Translations under genes and position numbers: made by a program
Notes under the pieces: generated by a model
The model's input: the letters and a program-made list of their open reading frames with translations, nothing else
Databases searched by the model: none
Told to the model about the DNA's origin: nothing
Origin: Dehalococcoidia bacterium
GTDB taxonomy: Bacteria; Chloroflexota; Dehalococcoidia; Lucifugimonadales; UBA3495
Direction of reading: 5' to 3'
NCBI GenBank assembly: GCA_965262595.1
Contig: OZ253548.1
Coordinates: forward strand, 951,645-1,015,644
DNA: 64,000 nt
Part shown: positions 4,234-52,199 of the stretch, in pieces
How the letters are laid out: each line of letters begins with the position of its first letter
Numbering within the stretch: the stretch's first letter is position 1

Positions 4234-6111
4234 ATGAAGACTAACCGAATTCAGAAGATGCCTAACCAATGGTTGATCAAACCCAGGGCACTCTTATATG
4301 GGCCGATTATTGCGGTGTTGGCCCTGGCCGCCGTGGCCTGTGGTTCGTCCGCTCCTGCCACGGCAATTCCTGCCGCCACGGTTGAACCGGCCGCTGCTGC
4401 GCCGGCACCTACGGCGGTGCCCGCCGAGGCGGCAATGCCCGCCGAAGAAATGATGGCCGAGGGCAAGAATGCGCCTTCCTTTGCCGATTACTGGCAGCCC
4501 GACACCGGGTTCTACGGACAGCCGGTTTACGGCGGCACCCTCCGCGTCAATTATGAAGACCCCCTGGAACATGCCAACGCCTGGGGATCAGGCTCCGGCG
4601 TGACCGACCGGTATCGAATGCCCACCGGCGCCACCCTGATAATGGAAAACCCCTATGACGCCGGCGCTCCGCTGCTCCCCGAGTTGGCCCAAAGCTGGAC
4701 GATCCATGATGACCTGGCCGGTGTAACCTTCGATTTCCGGGAGGGCACTACCTGGCATAACGGCGACATCTTCACCTGTGAAGACGCCCGGTTCACCTTG
4801 GAAACCATGATAACCGGCAACGGCCTTACCGCCAGCAACATGAAGAGCCGCCTCGCCAACGTTGTATTGAACGAGACGACTTGCTCTGACGACCTGACCC
4901 TGGAAATGCGGTTCTCCGGTCCCACTGGAATACCCTTGCTCCCGCTGTCAAACCGCCGGGGCCAAATATTCAACAAGGCCTGGTTTGTAGCCGGTGGCGA
5001 AGAAGTGATGTTCCAGGATGTCTCGGTAGGTCTTGGCCCCTTCATGTGGGCTCCGGGCCAGTCCGTAGGCATTGACGAGCAACACTATGATAAGAACCCC
5101 AATTACTACATACCTGAGCTACCTTACGTGGATGAGTTGGTCGTCTTCGGTATCCTGGACGAGTCGGCGCAGCAGGCCACCCAATTGGCCCACCAGACCG
5201 ACTGGCACTGGGTGCGTAACTTCGGCCAGTATCGGGCCTATGTGGACCACGACCAGATTATGACGGTTATCCGGGCCACCCGCGGCAACTTCCGCTTGTG
5301 GATCAACCCGCGAATCCCGCCCTTCGACAACGTTAGAGTGCGGCAGGCCATCGTCATGAGCATCGACCGGGAGGCTGCCATTACAGTACTCCAGGATGGT
5401 TACGGAGCCACGGGCTTCTTTGGTTATGCTCCGGGCAGCCCCTGGAACCTCTCGCCGGAAAAGGGCTGCGCCGTCCCCGGCTGGTGCCCGTCCGAAGATA
5501 TGGAAGCTACTCGGGCCGAGGCCAGGAAGATTCTGGAGGAAGAAGGCTTCGACTTCGACGAGTCCTATCTCTTTACCGTAGAGTCGGATGCACAGGTGCA
5601 GGCTCGCGCCACCTTCCTGCAGGAGCAGCTGCGGCTAGTGGGAATCAAAACCGACTTCGACTCGGTTGAAACCATTGCCTACCGCCAGCAGGATGTCAAC
5701 GGCACTTGGGGCGCGCTCAAGCCTGGAAACAGTACGGTTACCGCGGACGACCCCAATGCAGGCGTGGCATCCTACCTCCGCTGCGACTCCACAAGCAACT
5801 ACTGGACTCCCAACGGCCCCTGCGACTTAGAAATCGTCGCATTGTTGGACCAGGCGCAGACCGAGCTGGACTTCACTGCCCGTAAGGCCCTGTCCGACGA
5901 AATGCAACTCCAGGCGATGAGACTCTATGGTTCCTTCCCGGTTTACTGGGAGCAGGAAGCGGTGTCTTTCTGGCCGGAGGTCAGGGGTTACGCTCACTTC
6001 CCGGCCCCCAACGGTTCCTTCCTGAAGTTTATGCACCTGTGGATTGATCCGGCCCACAAGGATGACACGGGCAATAAGGGTCAAACCACCGGCGTACCCG
6101 GGGGAATCTAG
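4234..6111 (+). CDS. ABC transporter substrate-binding lipoprotein, family 5 (peptide/opine/nickel type), paralog 1
   Basis: ATG at 4234 sits behind GGGAG; the track's TTG at 4222 is less likely. Signal peptide with a lipobox-like LAAVAC|GSS, an Ala/Pro linker, then YGGTLRVNYEDPLEH...NPNYYIPELPYVD..V.FGILDE.AQQA, typical SBP_bac_5 features. Confidence 0.85.
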   Translation: MKTNRIQKMPNQWLIKPRALLYGPIIAVLALAAVACGSSAPATAIPAATVEPAAAAPAPTAVPAEAAMPAEEMMAEGKNAPSFADYWQPDTGFYGQPVYGGTLRVNYEDPLEHANAWGSGSGVTDRYRMPTGATLIMENPYDAGAPLLPELAQSWTIHDDLAGVTFDFREGTTWHNGDIFTCEDARFTLETMITGNGLTASNMKSRLANVVLNETTCSDDLTLEMRFSGPTGIPLLPLSNRRGQIFNKAWFVAGGEEVMFQDVSVGLGPFMWAPGQSVGIDEQHYDKNPNYYIPELPYVDELVVFGILDESAQQATQLAHQTDWHWVRNFGQYRAYVDHDQIMTVIRATRGNFRLWINPRIPPFDNVRVRQAIVMSIDREAAITVLQDGYGATGFFGYAPGSPWNLSPEKGCAVPGWCPSEDMEATRAEARKILEEEGFDFDESYLFTVESDAQVQARATFLQEQLRLVGIKTDFDSVETIAYRQQDVNGTWGALKPGNSTVTADDPNAGVASYLRCDSTSNYWTPNGPCDLEIVALLDQAQTELDFTARKALSDEMQLQAMRLYGSFPVYWEQEAVSFWPEVRGYAHFPAPNGSFLKFMHLWIDPAHKDDTGNKGQTTGVPGGI

Positions 6112-48216: not shown

Positions 48217-48382
48217 TCTGGCTAATCATGACCTGGCCGGCACGGCGGGTGAGTGCCGGTCGGCTTGAAAACCCCTGACAGATTACGCCAATAGATCACA
48301 CCGATAGAATACGCCGCCAGCAAACCGTGGGCCTTTTACCGTTCCCGGATTAAGCTCACGGGTGAAGGTAAGAGGAAAGACG

Positions 48383-50014
48383 ATGCAGCCAATCAGCAAA
48401 ATCGCAGAAGACCTGGGTATATCTGCCGACCATCTGACTCCCTACGGCCATTACAAAGCCAAGATTTCCCTGGACGCTTTACAGGGCGGACGGGAGCATC
48501 CGGGGAAGCTGATTGTAGTTACCGGCATGACCCCCACTCCCGCCGGCGAAGGCAAAACCACCACCGCGGTCGGTTTAACCCAGGGGCTGGGCCGGCTGGG
48601 ACACAAGGCGGTGGTCACCTTGCGAGAACCGACTCTTGGACCGATCTTCGGTATCAAGGGTGGCGGAACCGGCGGCGGAAAAGCCCGGGTGCTGCCCGAG
48701 GACGAGATAAACATCCACTTTACGGGCGACGCCCACGCGGTGGCTTCGGCTCACAACCTGTTGGCCGCCCTGGTGGATAATGCGGTTTACCGAGGGCAGA
48801 TTCCCGACTTCGACCCCACCGGAATCCAGTGGTCACGCGTGACCGACGCCTCGGACCGGGCCTTAAGAAGCCTTATCGCCGGAGTGGGGGGCAGCAACAA
48901 CAGCCCGCTTCGCGAGTCTCGGTTCGACATAGTGTCCGCCTCCGAAATTATGGCTATCCTGGCCCTGTCCGACGACCTGGAGGACTTGCGCCGCCGCTTG
49001 TCCCGAATGGTGGTGGGAACCACCCGCGGCGGGGAACCGGTGACTGTGGAAAAGCTGGGAGTAGTCGGCGCGTTGTTGACCCTATTGCGCCACACGATTA
49101 TGCCAAACATCGTGCAGACCGGCGAGGGCCAACCGGCGCTAATCCACGCCGGGCCTTTCGGGAACATCGCCCACGGCTGCAACTCAATCATCGCAGACCG
49201 AATAGCCTTGGCCTACGCCGACTACGTGGTGACCGAAGCCGGTTTTGGGTCTGACCTGGGCTTTGAAAAGTTTATGCATATTAAAGCGCGGCAGAGCGGG
49301 CTTTTGCCCCATGCCGTAGTTCTGGTAGCCTCGGTTCGCGCCTTGAAATGGCACGGCGGTATTCCTCGCCGCGAATTGGAGCAACCTAACCCCGGCGCCG
49401 TAAAGATCGGAGGCCCTAACCTGGCCCACCACGTGAAAATTGTCCGCAGCTTTGGGGTCCCGGTGGTTGTGGCAATCAACCGCTTTGACACCGATAGCCC
49501 CGAAGAGTTGGCGGCGGTGCGCGAGATTGCTGCGGAAGCCGGAGCCAATGACGCGGTAGCAGCCGACGGTTTTGCCCAGGGTGGAGCCGGTATGACCGAC
49601 TTGGCCGAAGCGCTGACCAAAGTGGCCGCCGCCCCCACTGACGTAACCTACGCCTATCCGGAGGATGCGTCCGCCGAGGATAAGGTGCTGGCCCTGGCCC
49701 AAAAGATTTACGGCGCCGACGCAGTAAGTTGGACGGTTGAAGCCAGGCGTCAACTGCGGCGATTTGAAAGCCAGGGATGGGGACACCTTCCTATATGCAT
49801 GGCCAAGACCCACTTATCCACTTCCCACGACCCGACTCGGCGGGGAAGCCCTTCCGGTTATGTTTTCCCCATCACCGACATACGAGCTTCGGTGGGAGCC
49901 GGGTTTCTTTATGCGCTGGCCGGGCGTATCGAGACATTGCCTGGGCTACCGTCTCGTCCCCTGGCCCAAGACATGGACGTTACATCCACCGGGGAGATTG
50001 TCGGCCTGGGGTAA
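48383..50014 (+). CDS. fhs: Formate--tetrahydrofolate ligase
   Basis: ATG at 48383 behind AGAGGAAAG. ...VTGMTPTPAGEGKTTT..GL...LREPSLGP.FGIKGGA-type motifs. Confidence 0.95.
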   Translation: MQPISKIAEDLGISADHLTPYGHYKAKISLDALQGGREHPGKLIVVTGMTPTPAGEGKTTTAVGLTQGLGRLGHKAVVTLREPTLGPIFGIKGGGTGGGKARVLPEDEINIHFTGDAHAVASAHNLLAALVDNAVYRGQIPDFDPTGIQWSRVTDASDRALRSLIAGVGGSNNSPLRESRFDIVSASEIMAILALSDDLEDLRRRLSRMVVGTTRGGEPVTVEKLGVVGALLTLLRHTIMPNIVQTGEGQPALIHAGPFGNIAHGCNSIIADRIALAYADYVVTEAGFGSDLGFEKFMHIKARQSGLLPHAVVLVASVRALKWHGGIPRRELEQPNPGAVKIGGPNLAHHVKIVRSFGVPVVVAINRFDTDSPEELAAVREIAAEAGANDAVAADGFAQGGAGMTDLAEALTKVAAAPTDVTYAYPEDASAEDKVLALAQKIYGADAVSWTVEARRQLRRFESQGWGHLPICMAKTHLSTSHDPTRRGSPSGYVFPITDIRASVGAGFLYALAGRIETLPGLPSRPLAQDMDVTSTGEIVGLG

Positions 50015-50150
50015 GGCCTCTTGGACCGGCCCTTTTGTCAGCCGCCCACCCCTGGTCATTTCCCGGGTCCATCTCGTCGAGCTGTTCCTGAACTGGAACC
50101 GGTGAATTCCCGCGGTCTATTGAAACCGGCGATATCCGGAAGGATTCAAC

Positions 50151-50206
50151 TTGACACCTTGCTGTCTTTCTTGTACCATTACGTGTAATCGGTAATTACA
50201 TTACAC
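50151..50206 (+). promoter_or_regulatory. Promoter plus ATTAC/GTAAT operator array upstream of the RHH gene
   Basis: TTGACA (50151-50156), 17 nt, TACCAT (50174-50179), then ATTAC-GT-GTAAT-CG-GTAATTAC-ATTAC (50178-50204). Confidence 0.5.
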
Positions 50207-50212
50207 AAAAGG

Positions 50213-50599
50213 ATGGTAGCGATGGAAGACAATGAAGTAGGAAGGCGGGAAAAGGTAATCAGGGATGTAGGTCGCACCGTAACCGATGCCGTAATTCGTG
50301 GCGCCGACGCTGCGGAGTCCGTTGCCGAAAACTTGAAGGAAACTATCAAGAGTAAAACGTCGGGAGACCGCCAAAACCGAGACAACGTGGTAATGGTCCG
50401 AGTGGACAAGGAAAGTCTGACCCGCATGGATGAACTGGTAGAAGCGGAACTGGCCGGCAGCCGATCTGAAGCGGCGGCCCGCCTCATTACCGAGGGCATC
50501 AAAGCACGACAAGGTCTTTTTGACGCCATATCCACCAAGGTGGAGGAAATTCGAAGGGCGAAGGAAGACCTCAAGAAGCTGCTGGAAGAAGAAAAGTAA
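50213..50599 (+). CDS. Ribbon-helix-helix (CopG/Arc-like) DNA-binding protein with charged N- and C-terminal extensions
   Basis: 128 aa (or a start at ATG 50222). VVMVRVDKESLTRMDELVEAELAGSRSEAAARLITEGI has the strand-helix-turn-helix pattern of an RHH. Confidence 0.65.
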   Translation: MVAMEDNEVGRREKVIRDVGRTVTDAVIRGADAAESVAENLKETIKSKTSGDRQNRDNVVMVRVDKESLTRMDELVEAELAGSRSEAAARLITEGIKARQGLFDAISTKVEEIRRAKEDLKKLLEEEK

Positions 50600-50692
50600 A
50601 GGAGAGAGTGAGACCTCTCATTCAACTGCCAATGTTTTGACAAGCATAACGGAAACAAGCAATACTAAATCTGGGACACAGCACAGAGGAGT

Positions 50693-51175
50693 ATGGATAT
50701 GTCCAGAGGTTTTGGTTCAGGCGGTTTCAAGGGCGGAGGCGCATCACGCGGAGGTTCCGGTTCCCGAAGCGCAGGAGGATCACGAGGAGGTTCGGGAAGC
50801 AGCGGATCGAGTTGGTCTCGCGGCAGTCCGAGTAGAGGAAGTGCAGAAAAACACGGTTCTGGCGGAAAGAGCACCGCCAACCCAAAAGGCCAGGTCCGGG
50901 ATGGTAAGGCCGTCCAGTATTCGATTAAGGATCAAAAGGGGAGTACGAAGTACATTGGCACTACCAACAATCCAACCCGACGGGCCTCCGAACATCGGGA
51001 AAGTGGCAAGCTTGGTCGTGGGGACAAACTCGTGGTCGAAACCAGGCCCGTAACCCGTACCTCTGCCGAAAAAGTGGAGAAAGCGAAGCTCTCCTCCCAT
51101 CGGCAACAACACGGGAAGAACCCAAAGGATAACACCACGAACGATGGAAAGTTCCACCAACCAAAGCTATTCTAG
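50693..51175 (+). CDS. GIY-YIG-type nuclease-domain protein with an N-terminal Gly/Ser/Arg-rich (RGG-like) low-complexity region
   Basis: 160 aa (or a start at ATG 50699). About 65 aa of GSGGFKGGGASRGGSGSRSAGGSRGGSGSS..., then VQYSIKDQKGSTKYIGTTNNPTRRASEHRESGKL...VEKAKL with GIY-YIG-like spacing. Confidence 0.55.
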   Translation: MDMSRGFGSGGFKGGGASRGGSGSRSAGGSRGGSGSSGSSWSRGSPSRGSAEKHGSGGKSTANPKGQVRDGKAVQYSIKDQKGSTKYIGTTNNPTRRASEHRESGKLGRGDKLVVETRPVTRTSAEKVEKAKLSSHRQQHGKNPKDNTTNDGKFHQPKLF

Positions 51176-51539
51176 TTGATCTCTTTTCGGTTTTACTCCA
51201 ACCGGAAATGGCTCATCATCGAATGATTCCCCTGCCGGTAAGGGTAATGGATTGGCACCTATGCCGGGTGGCGGAACAGGGTAAGAAGGGCTACAGTGAA
51301 TCTAACCAAGAACTGAGGGAGACTCGGTACAGGAACGGCAGCGTTAACGTCCAAGTTTACATTAGCGCCAATGAAGAACTCTTCCCCTGCCGGCGCGGCG
51401 TGACCCGATGACGCCTAAAGAAAACCAACTTAACAATAACCGCAATATCGCCCCAAACCGCTACTAAAGAGAGTTAATCGGTGCTGAAATTAAGATTGCC
51501 TTTCGGTACTCTTCGTGGCCCCGCCAGCGACGGGGCTGG

Positions 51540-52199
51540 GTGCTTAATGCGCATTGTCATGATTCATGCCCTTGCCGAGTCGGCCCCCCGGTCTGGGTTG
51601 CTTTCAAGGAAGTGTTCCCCGAAGCAGAGGTAATCAACCTGCTTGATGAGGGCTTGTTTATTGATTTTGCCGGGCAGATTACGCCCACATTGCGCCGCCG
51701 GATGAGCCAACTTATCTGTTATTGCGAGGAGTATGGCGCAGATGCCATCGGGCTGGCCTGCTCGGTTTTCGCCCCGGTGGTAGAAACGGCGCGCGACCTG
51801 GTGGATATCCCGGTCGTGTCCTCTTTCAGCCCAGTGATGGAAGAAGCAGTCCGGCAAGGCAGCCGCATCGGCATCATCGCCTCCGTCCCGGCGACGCTCA
51901 GGGACTCCGACTTCTATCTGCACCGAACCGCAGCCGAGTATGGTCGGTCTATTGAAACCGAACTCTGCCTGGCCGGGGAACTGATTCCCTTGTTGCGAAC
52001 TCAGGGAGAAGCGGCGTTCCGAACGCGGTTGGAGGAGCTGGTCAATGAGCTGACGCCCAAGGTGGATGCGGTGCTGTTGGGCCAGTTCTCGATGTCCACA
52101 GCCCTGACCCGACTGCAAGCAATCTGCCCGGTGCCGGTGCTTTCCGGGCCGCACAGCAGCGCCAGGAAACTCAAGGAACTAATGTCAGTGTCCGTCTGA
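51540..52199 (+). CDS. Asp/Glu/hydantoin racemase family protein (N-terminus probably frame-shifted)
   Basis: AEVINLLDEGL...DAIGLACSVF...RIGIIASVP...VDAVLLGQFSM are family motifs. The family-typical N-terminus MRIVMIHALAESAP is encoded from ATG 51547 in another frame, joining at a C6 run (51584-51589). Confidence 0.65.
   Translation: MLNAHCHDSCPCRVGPPVWVAFKEVFPEAEVINLLDEGLFIDFAGQITPTLRRRMSQLICYCEEYGADAIGLACSVFAPVVETARDLVDIPVVSSFSPVMEEAVRQGSRIGIIASVPATLRDSDFYLHRTAAEYGRSIETELCLAGELIPLLRTQGEAAFRTRLEELVNELTPKVDAVLLGQFSMSTALTRLQAICPVPVLSGPHSSARKLKELMSVSV

Follow-up and report, generated by a model that had tools for sequence, protein, structure and literature searches.

Between the formate-tetrahydrofolate ligase gene fhs and an Asp/Glu-racemase-family gene, a 64,000-nucleotide stretch of a Dehalococcoidia bacterium genome (contig OZ253548.1, positions 951,645 to 1,015,644; hereafter the window) carries two small genes, g1 and g2, both on the + strand. 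Gene g1 is predicted to encode a divergent ribbon-helix-helix (RHH) protein and g2 a nuclease of the GIY-YIG (URI) superfamily with a disordered basic tail. The reading that we favor, with a probability of roughly 60%, is that these are separately evolving genes and not an obligate pair: a variable slot for accessory and defense genes lies behind an RHH regulator that represses itself, and the nuclease is the current cargo of that slot. Judged by sequence, both genes extend known families: g1 would add an RHH autoregulator and g2 a GIY-YIG nuclease whose disordered tail is RG-rich. The slot that holds the nuclease is small, variable, and partly defense-related.

A putative regulator gene with changing cargo

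The first-pass annotation of this DNA had taken g1 for an antitoxin-like repressor that forms an addiction or defense module with g2. That partnership is not borne out by a survey of one genome per species. A relative of g2 is present at 80 loci, most of them from Dehalococcoidia, and g1 lies upstream in eight (L001-L006, L008, and L009; the L numbers designate loci of relatives), always in the order metH-fhs-g1-g2-racemase, and the pair is syntenic in this one clade only; the other 72 loci are without g1. Conversely, g1 is found without g2 in hundreds of lineages (e.g., L081-L085, L090-L096, and L139-L149). The g1 family is large, with 1167 homologs at E ≤ 0.001 among 1200 candidates, and comprises 739 clusters at 50% identity.

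In SAR202/Dehalococcoidia chromosomes g1 stays after metH/fhs while the gene that follows it changes. Within the frame metH-g1-slot-racemase, a prokaryotic viperin (pVip) occupies the slot of L082 (4435-5307), L084 (2747-3619), L085 (4415-5317), and L143 (4449-5318), and starts 16-50 nt downstream of g1. These slot viperins score 288-298 bits against NF038283 (cut-off 180), and the slot gene of L082/L085 matches the PADLOC pVip model at E 1e-83 to 1e-112, which also served as the positive control for the PADLOC search. Elsewhere the slot holds a lipoprotein-like pair of a 78-aa and a ~235-aa protein (L081, L083, and L139, in the last case 3 nt after g1), g2 together with this pair (L005), or an intact g2 (L150, at ~80% identity). 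It is empty in L140, L141, and L144-L149, and in the marine lineages L090-L096 a convergent gene follows g1. As a side observation, the 389-aa product of a slot gene of L081 (4536-5705) combines pairs of Cys residues with an HNH-like stretch and a hydrophobic segment of the Gly/Ala-zipper type; no Pfam, PADLOC, or NCBIfam match was obtained for it.

The closest relatives show the slot in a different state. By blastn, L144-L149 are 96% nucleotide-identical to the window up to position 50571 and again from 51544, and they lack g2. Instead they carry an unrelated 268-nt spacer, which had no match in other loci and replaces the last nine codons of g1, g2 itself, and 368 nt after g2. Since g2 is absent from these 96%-identical relatives yet intact in L150, comparison of the loci marks it as an accessory gene that has been lost or replaced over the history of this variable slot. 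No flanking direct repeats were found around the g2 segment. Behind g2, the stretch 51290-51344 has 82% nucleotide identity to L005 7353-7407, which lies inside the L005 homolog of the ~235-aa gene, and a 67-codon open reading frame (ORF) at 51208-51411 aligns with L005 at 58% over 45 aa and weakly with the C-termini of L083_235 and L081_239. On these alignments the ORF is not a gene; it is what decay has left of the C-terminal part of the ~235-aa lipoprotein-like slot gene.

The wider neighborhood is structurally unstable: the racemase gene is absent in L145 and L146, and in L147 (5343-7746), another 96% relative, two insertion sequence copies (DDE_3 transposase and helix-turn-helix genes) lie between the racemase and D-Ser-dehydratase-like genes.

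CapW/BrxR-type regulators sit upstream of diverse defense systems. The g1 loci are similar to such regulator-headed loci in that one regulator family lies upstream of varied cargo, which includes the antiviral pVip. They differ in that g1 is of the RHH type and not of the WYL/winged helix-turn-helix type, in that g1 keeps to one chromosomal position and often has no cargo, and in that there is no sign that g1 senses infection.

Features of the locus

The features of the g1-g2 interval are listed by position in the window, strand, and basis.

50151-50179, + strand: putative sigma-70-type promoter of g1, with TTGACA at 50151-50156, a 17-nt spacer, and TACCAT at 50174-50179 (10/12 matches in the scan).
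50178-50204, no strand assigned: candidate operator array, a core palindrome and further half-sites (the sole such cluster in the 64-kb window).
50222-50599 (alternative ATG 50213), + strand: g1, a 125-aa putative RHH-type DNA-binding protein (PHROG match, weak RHH_1 matches in relatives, structure model).
50600-50698, + strand: g1-g2 spacer of 99 nt, with a promoter-like site inside and without a + strand terminator-like site.
50699-50887, + strand: predicted disordered N-terminal tail of g2, residues 1-63 (composition, model confidence, family-wide presence).
50888-51175, + strand: predicted GIY-YIG core of g2 and its C-terminal motif NPKHNTTNDGKFH (Pfam, structure model, fold matches, invariant columns).
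50572-51543, no strand assigned: segment differing from the closest relatives (blastn of the window against L144-L149).
51290-51344, + strand: probable remains of the lipoprotein-like gene of ~235 aa, within the span of the spurious ORF 51208-51411 (nucleotide match to L005).

The interval is preceded by fhs (48362-50014) and bounded downstream by the racemase-family gene, which begins at ~51547. Two genes on one strand behind a TTGACA-17-TACCAT promoter and five half-sites had been described here, and all of these elements are present. Each ORF has two possible ATG starts, at 50213/50222 for g1 (ending at 50599; 128/125 aa) and at 50693/50699 for g2 (ending at 51175; 160/158 aa). The second ATG is chosen in both cases by public gene calls (P0068, 125 aa; P0001, 158 aa) and has the better Shine-Dalgarno spacing (AAGGA-8 nt-ATG 50222; GAGGAG-7 nt-ATG 50699). 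No RNA family was matched by Rfam in 49800-51800.

The GC content is 0.50-0.56 across ~50050-51700 and 0.58-0.64 in the flanks, a dip that is real but modest. The region had been called a low-GC insert between fhs and the racemase gene; the dip can be retained, whereas the term insert does not apply to g1, an old resident of this site, and holds at most for g2.

The racemase-family gene is apparently frameshifted in the window. The start MRIVMIHALAESAP... (ATG 51547) is out of frame with a long ORF starting at 51540, the racemase of relatives aligns only from residue 16 of that ORF, and metatranscriptome contigs of close relatives have one extra base after 51583.

A probable operator conserved with g1

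The array upstream of g1 consists of five half-sites, ATTAC (50178-50182), GTAAT (50185-50189), GTAAT (50192-50196), ATTAC (50195-50199), and ATTAC (50200-50204). The core palindrome ATTAC-GT-GTAAT (50178-50189) overlaps both the -10 box and the site where transcription probably starts, and beyond it the half-sites are spaced at ~7-bp steps. Such crowding is found nowhere else in the window, which contains 110 ATTAC/GTAAT pentamers and in which every other 27-nt stretch holds at most two; TTACNNGTAA occurs a single time in the 64 kb.

The order TTGACA, -10 box, ATTAC-N2-GTAAT, and GTAAT is seen upstream of g1 in all eight of the close g2-bearing loci examined. The same promoter-palindrome layout was recorded for L001-L009 and L081-L085, 14 close loci, independent of the downstream gene, and it is also present in many metagenomic g1 loci, down to 43% protein identity. 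When the palindrome was counted as [AC]TTAC-N2-GTAA[TG] within -130 to +10 of the g1 start, 42 of 63 non-redundant loci had it. Outside this interval, 449 kb of the same loci contain seven further copies: five just inside the estimated g1 start and single ones at -149 and -1211.

Given this comparative conservation and a palindrome that covers both the -10 box and +1, autorepression by g1 is the most economical reading, and the autorepression-type layout earlier proposed for the array is supported. The array is very probably the operator of g1 itself. Dimers of g1 would probably bind ATTAC-N2-GTAAT together with the flanking GTAAT/ATTAC half-sites, and binding over the -10 box and start site would repress the g1 promoter.

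RHH autorepressors that read short repeated half-sites include CopG, Arc, MetJ, and omega of pSM19035, the last with 7-bp heptads. Like these, g1 would be a small RHH protein with a 5-bp core repeated in both inverted and direct orientation across the -10 box of its own promoter, and its invariant ribbon strand is co-conserved with the invariant half-site; the phasing of ~7 bp between half-sites resembles that of omega. Unlike them, g1 is a chromosomal gene at a fixed site after metH/fhs and adds an N-terminal amphipathic helical region and a long coiled-coil-like C-terminal helix. Its family also stays below the threshold of every Pfam model in the copy used, and its operator binding is predicted from sequence.

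Gene g1 as a probable divergent RHH protein

The assignment of g1 as a divergent RHH protein is the weaker but consistent one. The protein matches phrog_4738, annotated as a transcriptional repressor, at E 4.2e-6. Among its relatives RHH_1 is the commonest weak Pfam match (17/27, best E 0.006; 19/82, best E 1.5e-4), at scores below the gathering score, and g1 of the window itself had no Pfam RHH match at E ≤ 1. In an AlphaFold2 (AF2) monomer model, residues 60-125 have a predicted local distance difference test score (pLDDT) above 90. The model consists of an extended NVVMVRVD segment (residues ~55-62), a helix (63-74), an AGSRSE loop, a second helix (81-95), and a long C-terminal helix (97-124), and it thus has the strand-helix-helix order with a G-x-S/T-x loop by which RHH proteins are recognized; the ribbon itself is two-stranded and cannot arise in a model of a single chain. 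Amphipathic helices at residues ~3-45 are modeled with low confidence. The residues predicted to form the ribbon are invariant in the family (R53, V56-R60, and D62), and the N- and C-terminal regions are conserved irrespective of the cargo. The repressor match, the weak RHH_1 matches in relatives, and the strand-helix-helix model agree with the RHH core that was noted in g1 at first reading.

Searches of PDB sequences with the full-length profile, the RHH core, and a wide family profile returned only designed helical or coiled-coil proteins, aligned to the N- and C-terminal helices, and a Foldseek search of PDB with the model gave nothing informative. An hhalign comparison of the RHH core with CopG and Arc sequences produced no alignment, which, with a low-diversity profile set against single sequences, is not a meaningful negative. 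No IMG/VR contig contained g1.

Gene g2 as a predicted minimal GIY-YIG nuclease with a basic tail

The GIY-YIG core described for g2 is well supported. Residues 76-110 match Pfam PF01541 with 25.8 bits (gathering score 22.6; E 1.4e-5), a match that spans only positions 5-39 of the 78 in the model, i.e., its N-terminal half, and PF01541 is precomputed for about half of 67 g2 relatives. An AF2 model built on 25 relatives has a core of residues 66-140 with a pLDDT of 84-90 and a beta-beta-alpha-beta-alpha topology (strands 70-77, 83-89, and 110-113; helices 92-102 and 120-138). When this model was compared with PDB by Foldseek, the best 12 matches were all GIY-YIG domains, including the N-terminal domain of AtGRXS16 (2lwf), UvrC from two species (1yd6/1ycz), and I-TevI (1ln0), with Slx1 further down the list. 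The E-values of these matches are weak (0.03-0.5), and their target-normalized template modeling scores are ~0.5, as expected for an 80-residue domain.

Residues that are invariant in the 25 relatives include Y74, Y85, G87, R94, R95, E98, H99, E127, and N145 (numbering of the 158-aa protein), and probable catalytic roles can be assigned from spacing to those at the canonical positions. The distances from Y85 to R95 (+10) and from R95 to H99 (+4) are equal to the spacings of the catalytic Tyr, Arg, and His/Tyr in I-TevI and UvrC. On profile, model, and fold matches g2 is a GIY-YIG (URI) superfamily nuclease, presumably metal-dependent. An NPxHNxTxDGxxH motif near the C-terminus is likewise invariant, specific to the family, and outside the canonical GIY-YIG domain. 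No NCBIfam model matched g2, the g2 profile found no PDB sequence, and neither g1 nor g2 had a match in PADLOC-DB 2.0 at E ≤ 1.

The core is preceded by a tail (residues 1-63) that is 71% Gly, Ser, and Arg with an isoelectric point of ~12, and of which residues 11-59 are predicted to be disordered (pLDDT < 50). An RGG-type low-complexity tail had been reported here. The basic Gly/Ser/Arg composition is confirmed, but with just two literal RGG triplets the tail is RG/SRGG-rich and not a canonical RGG box. It includes an imperfect 36-nt tandem duplication (50722-50757/50758-50793), and Tandem Repeats Finder called no tandem repeat at the g2 segment. Across the family the tail ranges from ~15 to 65 residues while a MARGFGS-type start and the composition are retained. 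In L008 (~5770-6000) the tail of the g2 homolog is out of frame with the core, which reflects a true frameshift or else a fault of assembly in this low-complexity part of a long-read metagenome-assembled genome.

Compared with the catalytic domains of UvrC, I-TevI, and Slx1 and with small stand-alone GIY-YIG/URI nucleases, g2 has the same fold and the same constellation of residues (Y, Y-x-G, R, H/Y, E, and N). It differs by the lack of a folded DNA-binding or partner domain, in place of which it has the disordered Arg/Gly/Ser tail of 15-65 residues, and by the additional NPxHNxTxDGxxH motif without NCBIfam or PDB sequence match. Thus, g2 would be a stand-alone minimal GIY-YIG nuclease with its catalytic residues intact, and the tail would most likely provide the non-specific nucleic-acid affinity that a bare catalytic domain of ~85 residues is missing. 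A literature search found no description of a GIY-YIG protein with a toxin-antitoxin (TA) or RHH partner or with an RG-rich disordered tail, and to our knowledge the combination of a minimal GIY-YIG domain and a prokaryotic RG-rich disordered tail has not been described.

That g2 is instead a degenerate GIY-YIG scaffold, a non-catalytic binder of nucleic acids through its basic tail, would accord with the half-length Pfam match and the weak fold-match E-values but is highly improbable, as the canonical catalytic positions (Tyr, Tyr-x-Gly, Arg, His, Glu, and Asn) are all invariant, the pattern that selection for catalysis would give.

Relatives of g2 in conflict settings

GIY-YIG domains of the g2 type also occur in proteins of biological conflict. 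Two Rhs proteins of more than 2080 aa (L076 and L079, 1-6264, from Actinosynnema sp. and Saccharothrix xinjiangensis) end in an ITNNPxRRAxEH GIY-YIG domain like that of g2, which follows the PxxxxDPxG motif of the Rhs core, and they are probably polymorphic toxins of the Tox-URI1 type. The signature of Tox-URI1 is Y, YxG, R, [RK]xxE, and N (Zhang et al. 2012, PMC3482391), with which the g2 residues Y, YxG, R, E, and N agree. Gene g2 encodes a stand-alone cytoplasmic protein of 158 aa that lacks Rhs and secretion modules, no gene for an immunity protein was seen next to g2, and identity to the Rhs tips is 37-38% over ~60 residues.

Distant stand-alone relatives of g2 (45-50% identity), which have short Arg-rich N-termini, lie beside genes for HigB toxin, IrrE/M78 with an XRE helix-turn-helix protein, and ThsB-type TIR proteins. 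Four distant relatives are located in IMG/VR contigs.

Some distant relatives are short (93-100 aa) and belong to conserved mini-islands (L042, 6853-7431; L041, 4962-5522 on the - strand; L052, 4362-4655; and L063, 4502-5728). These mini-islands are of two kinds. One combines an IrrE/M78 peptidase and XRE helix-turn-helix pair with a ThsB-type TIR protein, and the other a HigB toxin with a ~400-aa protein that has no Pfam match at E ≤ 0.001 and in which an HExxH motif (HELSH) is visible by eye.

With viperin in the same slot and relatives in Rhs, HigB, IrrE, and TIR contexts, the defense half of the proposed addiction or defense module is still plausible as a cargo role for g2, while the addiction half is not supported. 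Overall, g2 looks more like a conflict- or defense-type effector or a DNA-processing enzyme than like a toxin that g1 neutralizes. A role in defense or conflict is put forward tentatively, with roughly one chance in three of being correct.

Transcription of g2

The gap between g1 and g2 is ~100 nt; in most relatives it measures 96-122 nt, and L002 has a longer one of 305 nt. As g2 has the same orientation as g1 and the scan found no + strand terminator-like site between them, the two are probably co-transcribed, with the g1 promoter as the likely source of at least some g2 transcripts. The absence of a terminator-like site before g2, together with cargo that starts 3-50 nt after g1 in relatives, suggests that the g1 transcript runs on into the slot; the g2 nuclease would then come under RHH control. 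The scanner called no terminator after g1 in relatives without g2. In L149 a GC-rich hairpin followed by TTTGCACATTTT can be seen by eye and is not relied on here.

Regulation of g2 relatives by an RHH protein in trans at other sites was considered and dropped, as no GTAAT/ATTAC cluster was found upstream of g2 relatives in other contexts.

Alternative explanations

The favored reading thus describes g1 as an RHH transcription factor, an old resident downstream of metH/fhs in SAR202/Dehalococcoidia, whose slot toward the racemase gene may be taken by a GIY-YIG nuclease, a viperin, a lipoprotein-like pair, the nuclease and the pair together, or nothing. Several observations weigh against it. 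Many lineages have no same-strand cargo after g1, so regulation of cargo cannot be the only role of g1. The RHH assignment draws on Pfam matches below threshold, one PHROG match, and the secondary structure of a model, and the PDB searches returned nothing for it. A promoter-like TTGACA-18-AATACT (50637-50666) in the g1-g2 spacer means that g2 may be expressed independently of g1, and the metatranscriptome contigs hold only g1 of relatives without g2. A close sister clade of g2, with ~70% core identity, is located between YchF and HemW/SelB without a small partner gene, which fits a housekeeping function as well; the g2 core is highly conserved in the close clade (60-86% identity); and g2 matches no PADLOC model.

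Part of this evidence would be expected if g1 and g2 were chance neighbors and g2 a lineage-specific housekeeping nuclease for DNA repair, recombination, or RNA processing, expressed from a separate promoter and without functional ties to g1. The conservation of the g2 core is similar to that of fhs and racemase (76-83%), the position between YchF, HemW, and SelB is stable in the sister clade, the spacer contains its promoter-like site, g2 in other contexts has no GTAAT cluster upstream, and the PADLOC search was negative. We nevertheless consider this explanation unlikely, if the most serious of the alternatives. Gene g2 is missing from relatives with 96% identical flanks and is patchy even inside its clade, the slot of other lineages is filled by a bona fide antiviral gene, and distant relatives of g2 are found in toxin and defense contexts. 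Neither the promoter-like site nor any RNA structure is conserved across the g1-g2 spacers of relatives.

A more far-reaching proposal is that the g1 family is an autoregulated RHH regulator dedicated to a swap-in defense slot in Chloroflexota, driving viperin, a membrane HNH-like protein, or a GIY-YIG protein, and that g2 is a new single-gene anti-phage or anti-plasmid nuclease whose tail targets invading nucleic acid. This we regard as speculative and unlikely.

A type II TA or addiction module, in which g1 would be autorepressor and antitoxin at once and would neutralize a GIY-YIG toxin by protein-protein contact, is very unlikely. An RHH gene ahead of a small nuclease gene in the same orientation, behind a promoter that contains an operator, is the gene order and autoregulation layout of type II systems with RHH antitoxins of the CcdA, ParD, RelB, and FitA types; domains related to g2 are tips of Rhs toxins, and the presence of g2 is polymorphic among close relatives. 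However, co-occurrence of the two genes is not obligate, as seen from the 72 of 80 g2 loci without g1 and from the far wider distribution of g1, which has other cargo or none. The termini of g1 are conserved regardless of cargo and g1 has no cargo-specific neutralizing region, the gap of ~100 nt is large for what is normally a tight operon, and no small partner gene accompanies the g2 relatives located between YchF and HemW. Moreover, the class of g2 is not known in TA systems: in a survey of polymorphic toxins, metal-dependent URI/GIY-YIG nucleases were apparently absent from classical TA systems (PMC3482391).

Implications

An RHH gene followed by a small nuclease gene should not be automatically annotated as a TA pair. 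The architecture of g2 could serve as a compact model of how disordered basic tails replace folded DNA-binding domains. Conservation of the g1 family together with its probable operator reaches down to 43% protein identity, which would open the DNA-recognition code of these RHH proteins to direct tests in uncultured and ecologically important SAR202/Dehalococcoidia, including sponge symbionts. In these bacteria the site behind g1 would be a small chromosomal hotspot at which accessory and defense genes such as viperin and nucleases are exchanged, and it may help to find defense genes where standard tools find little.

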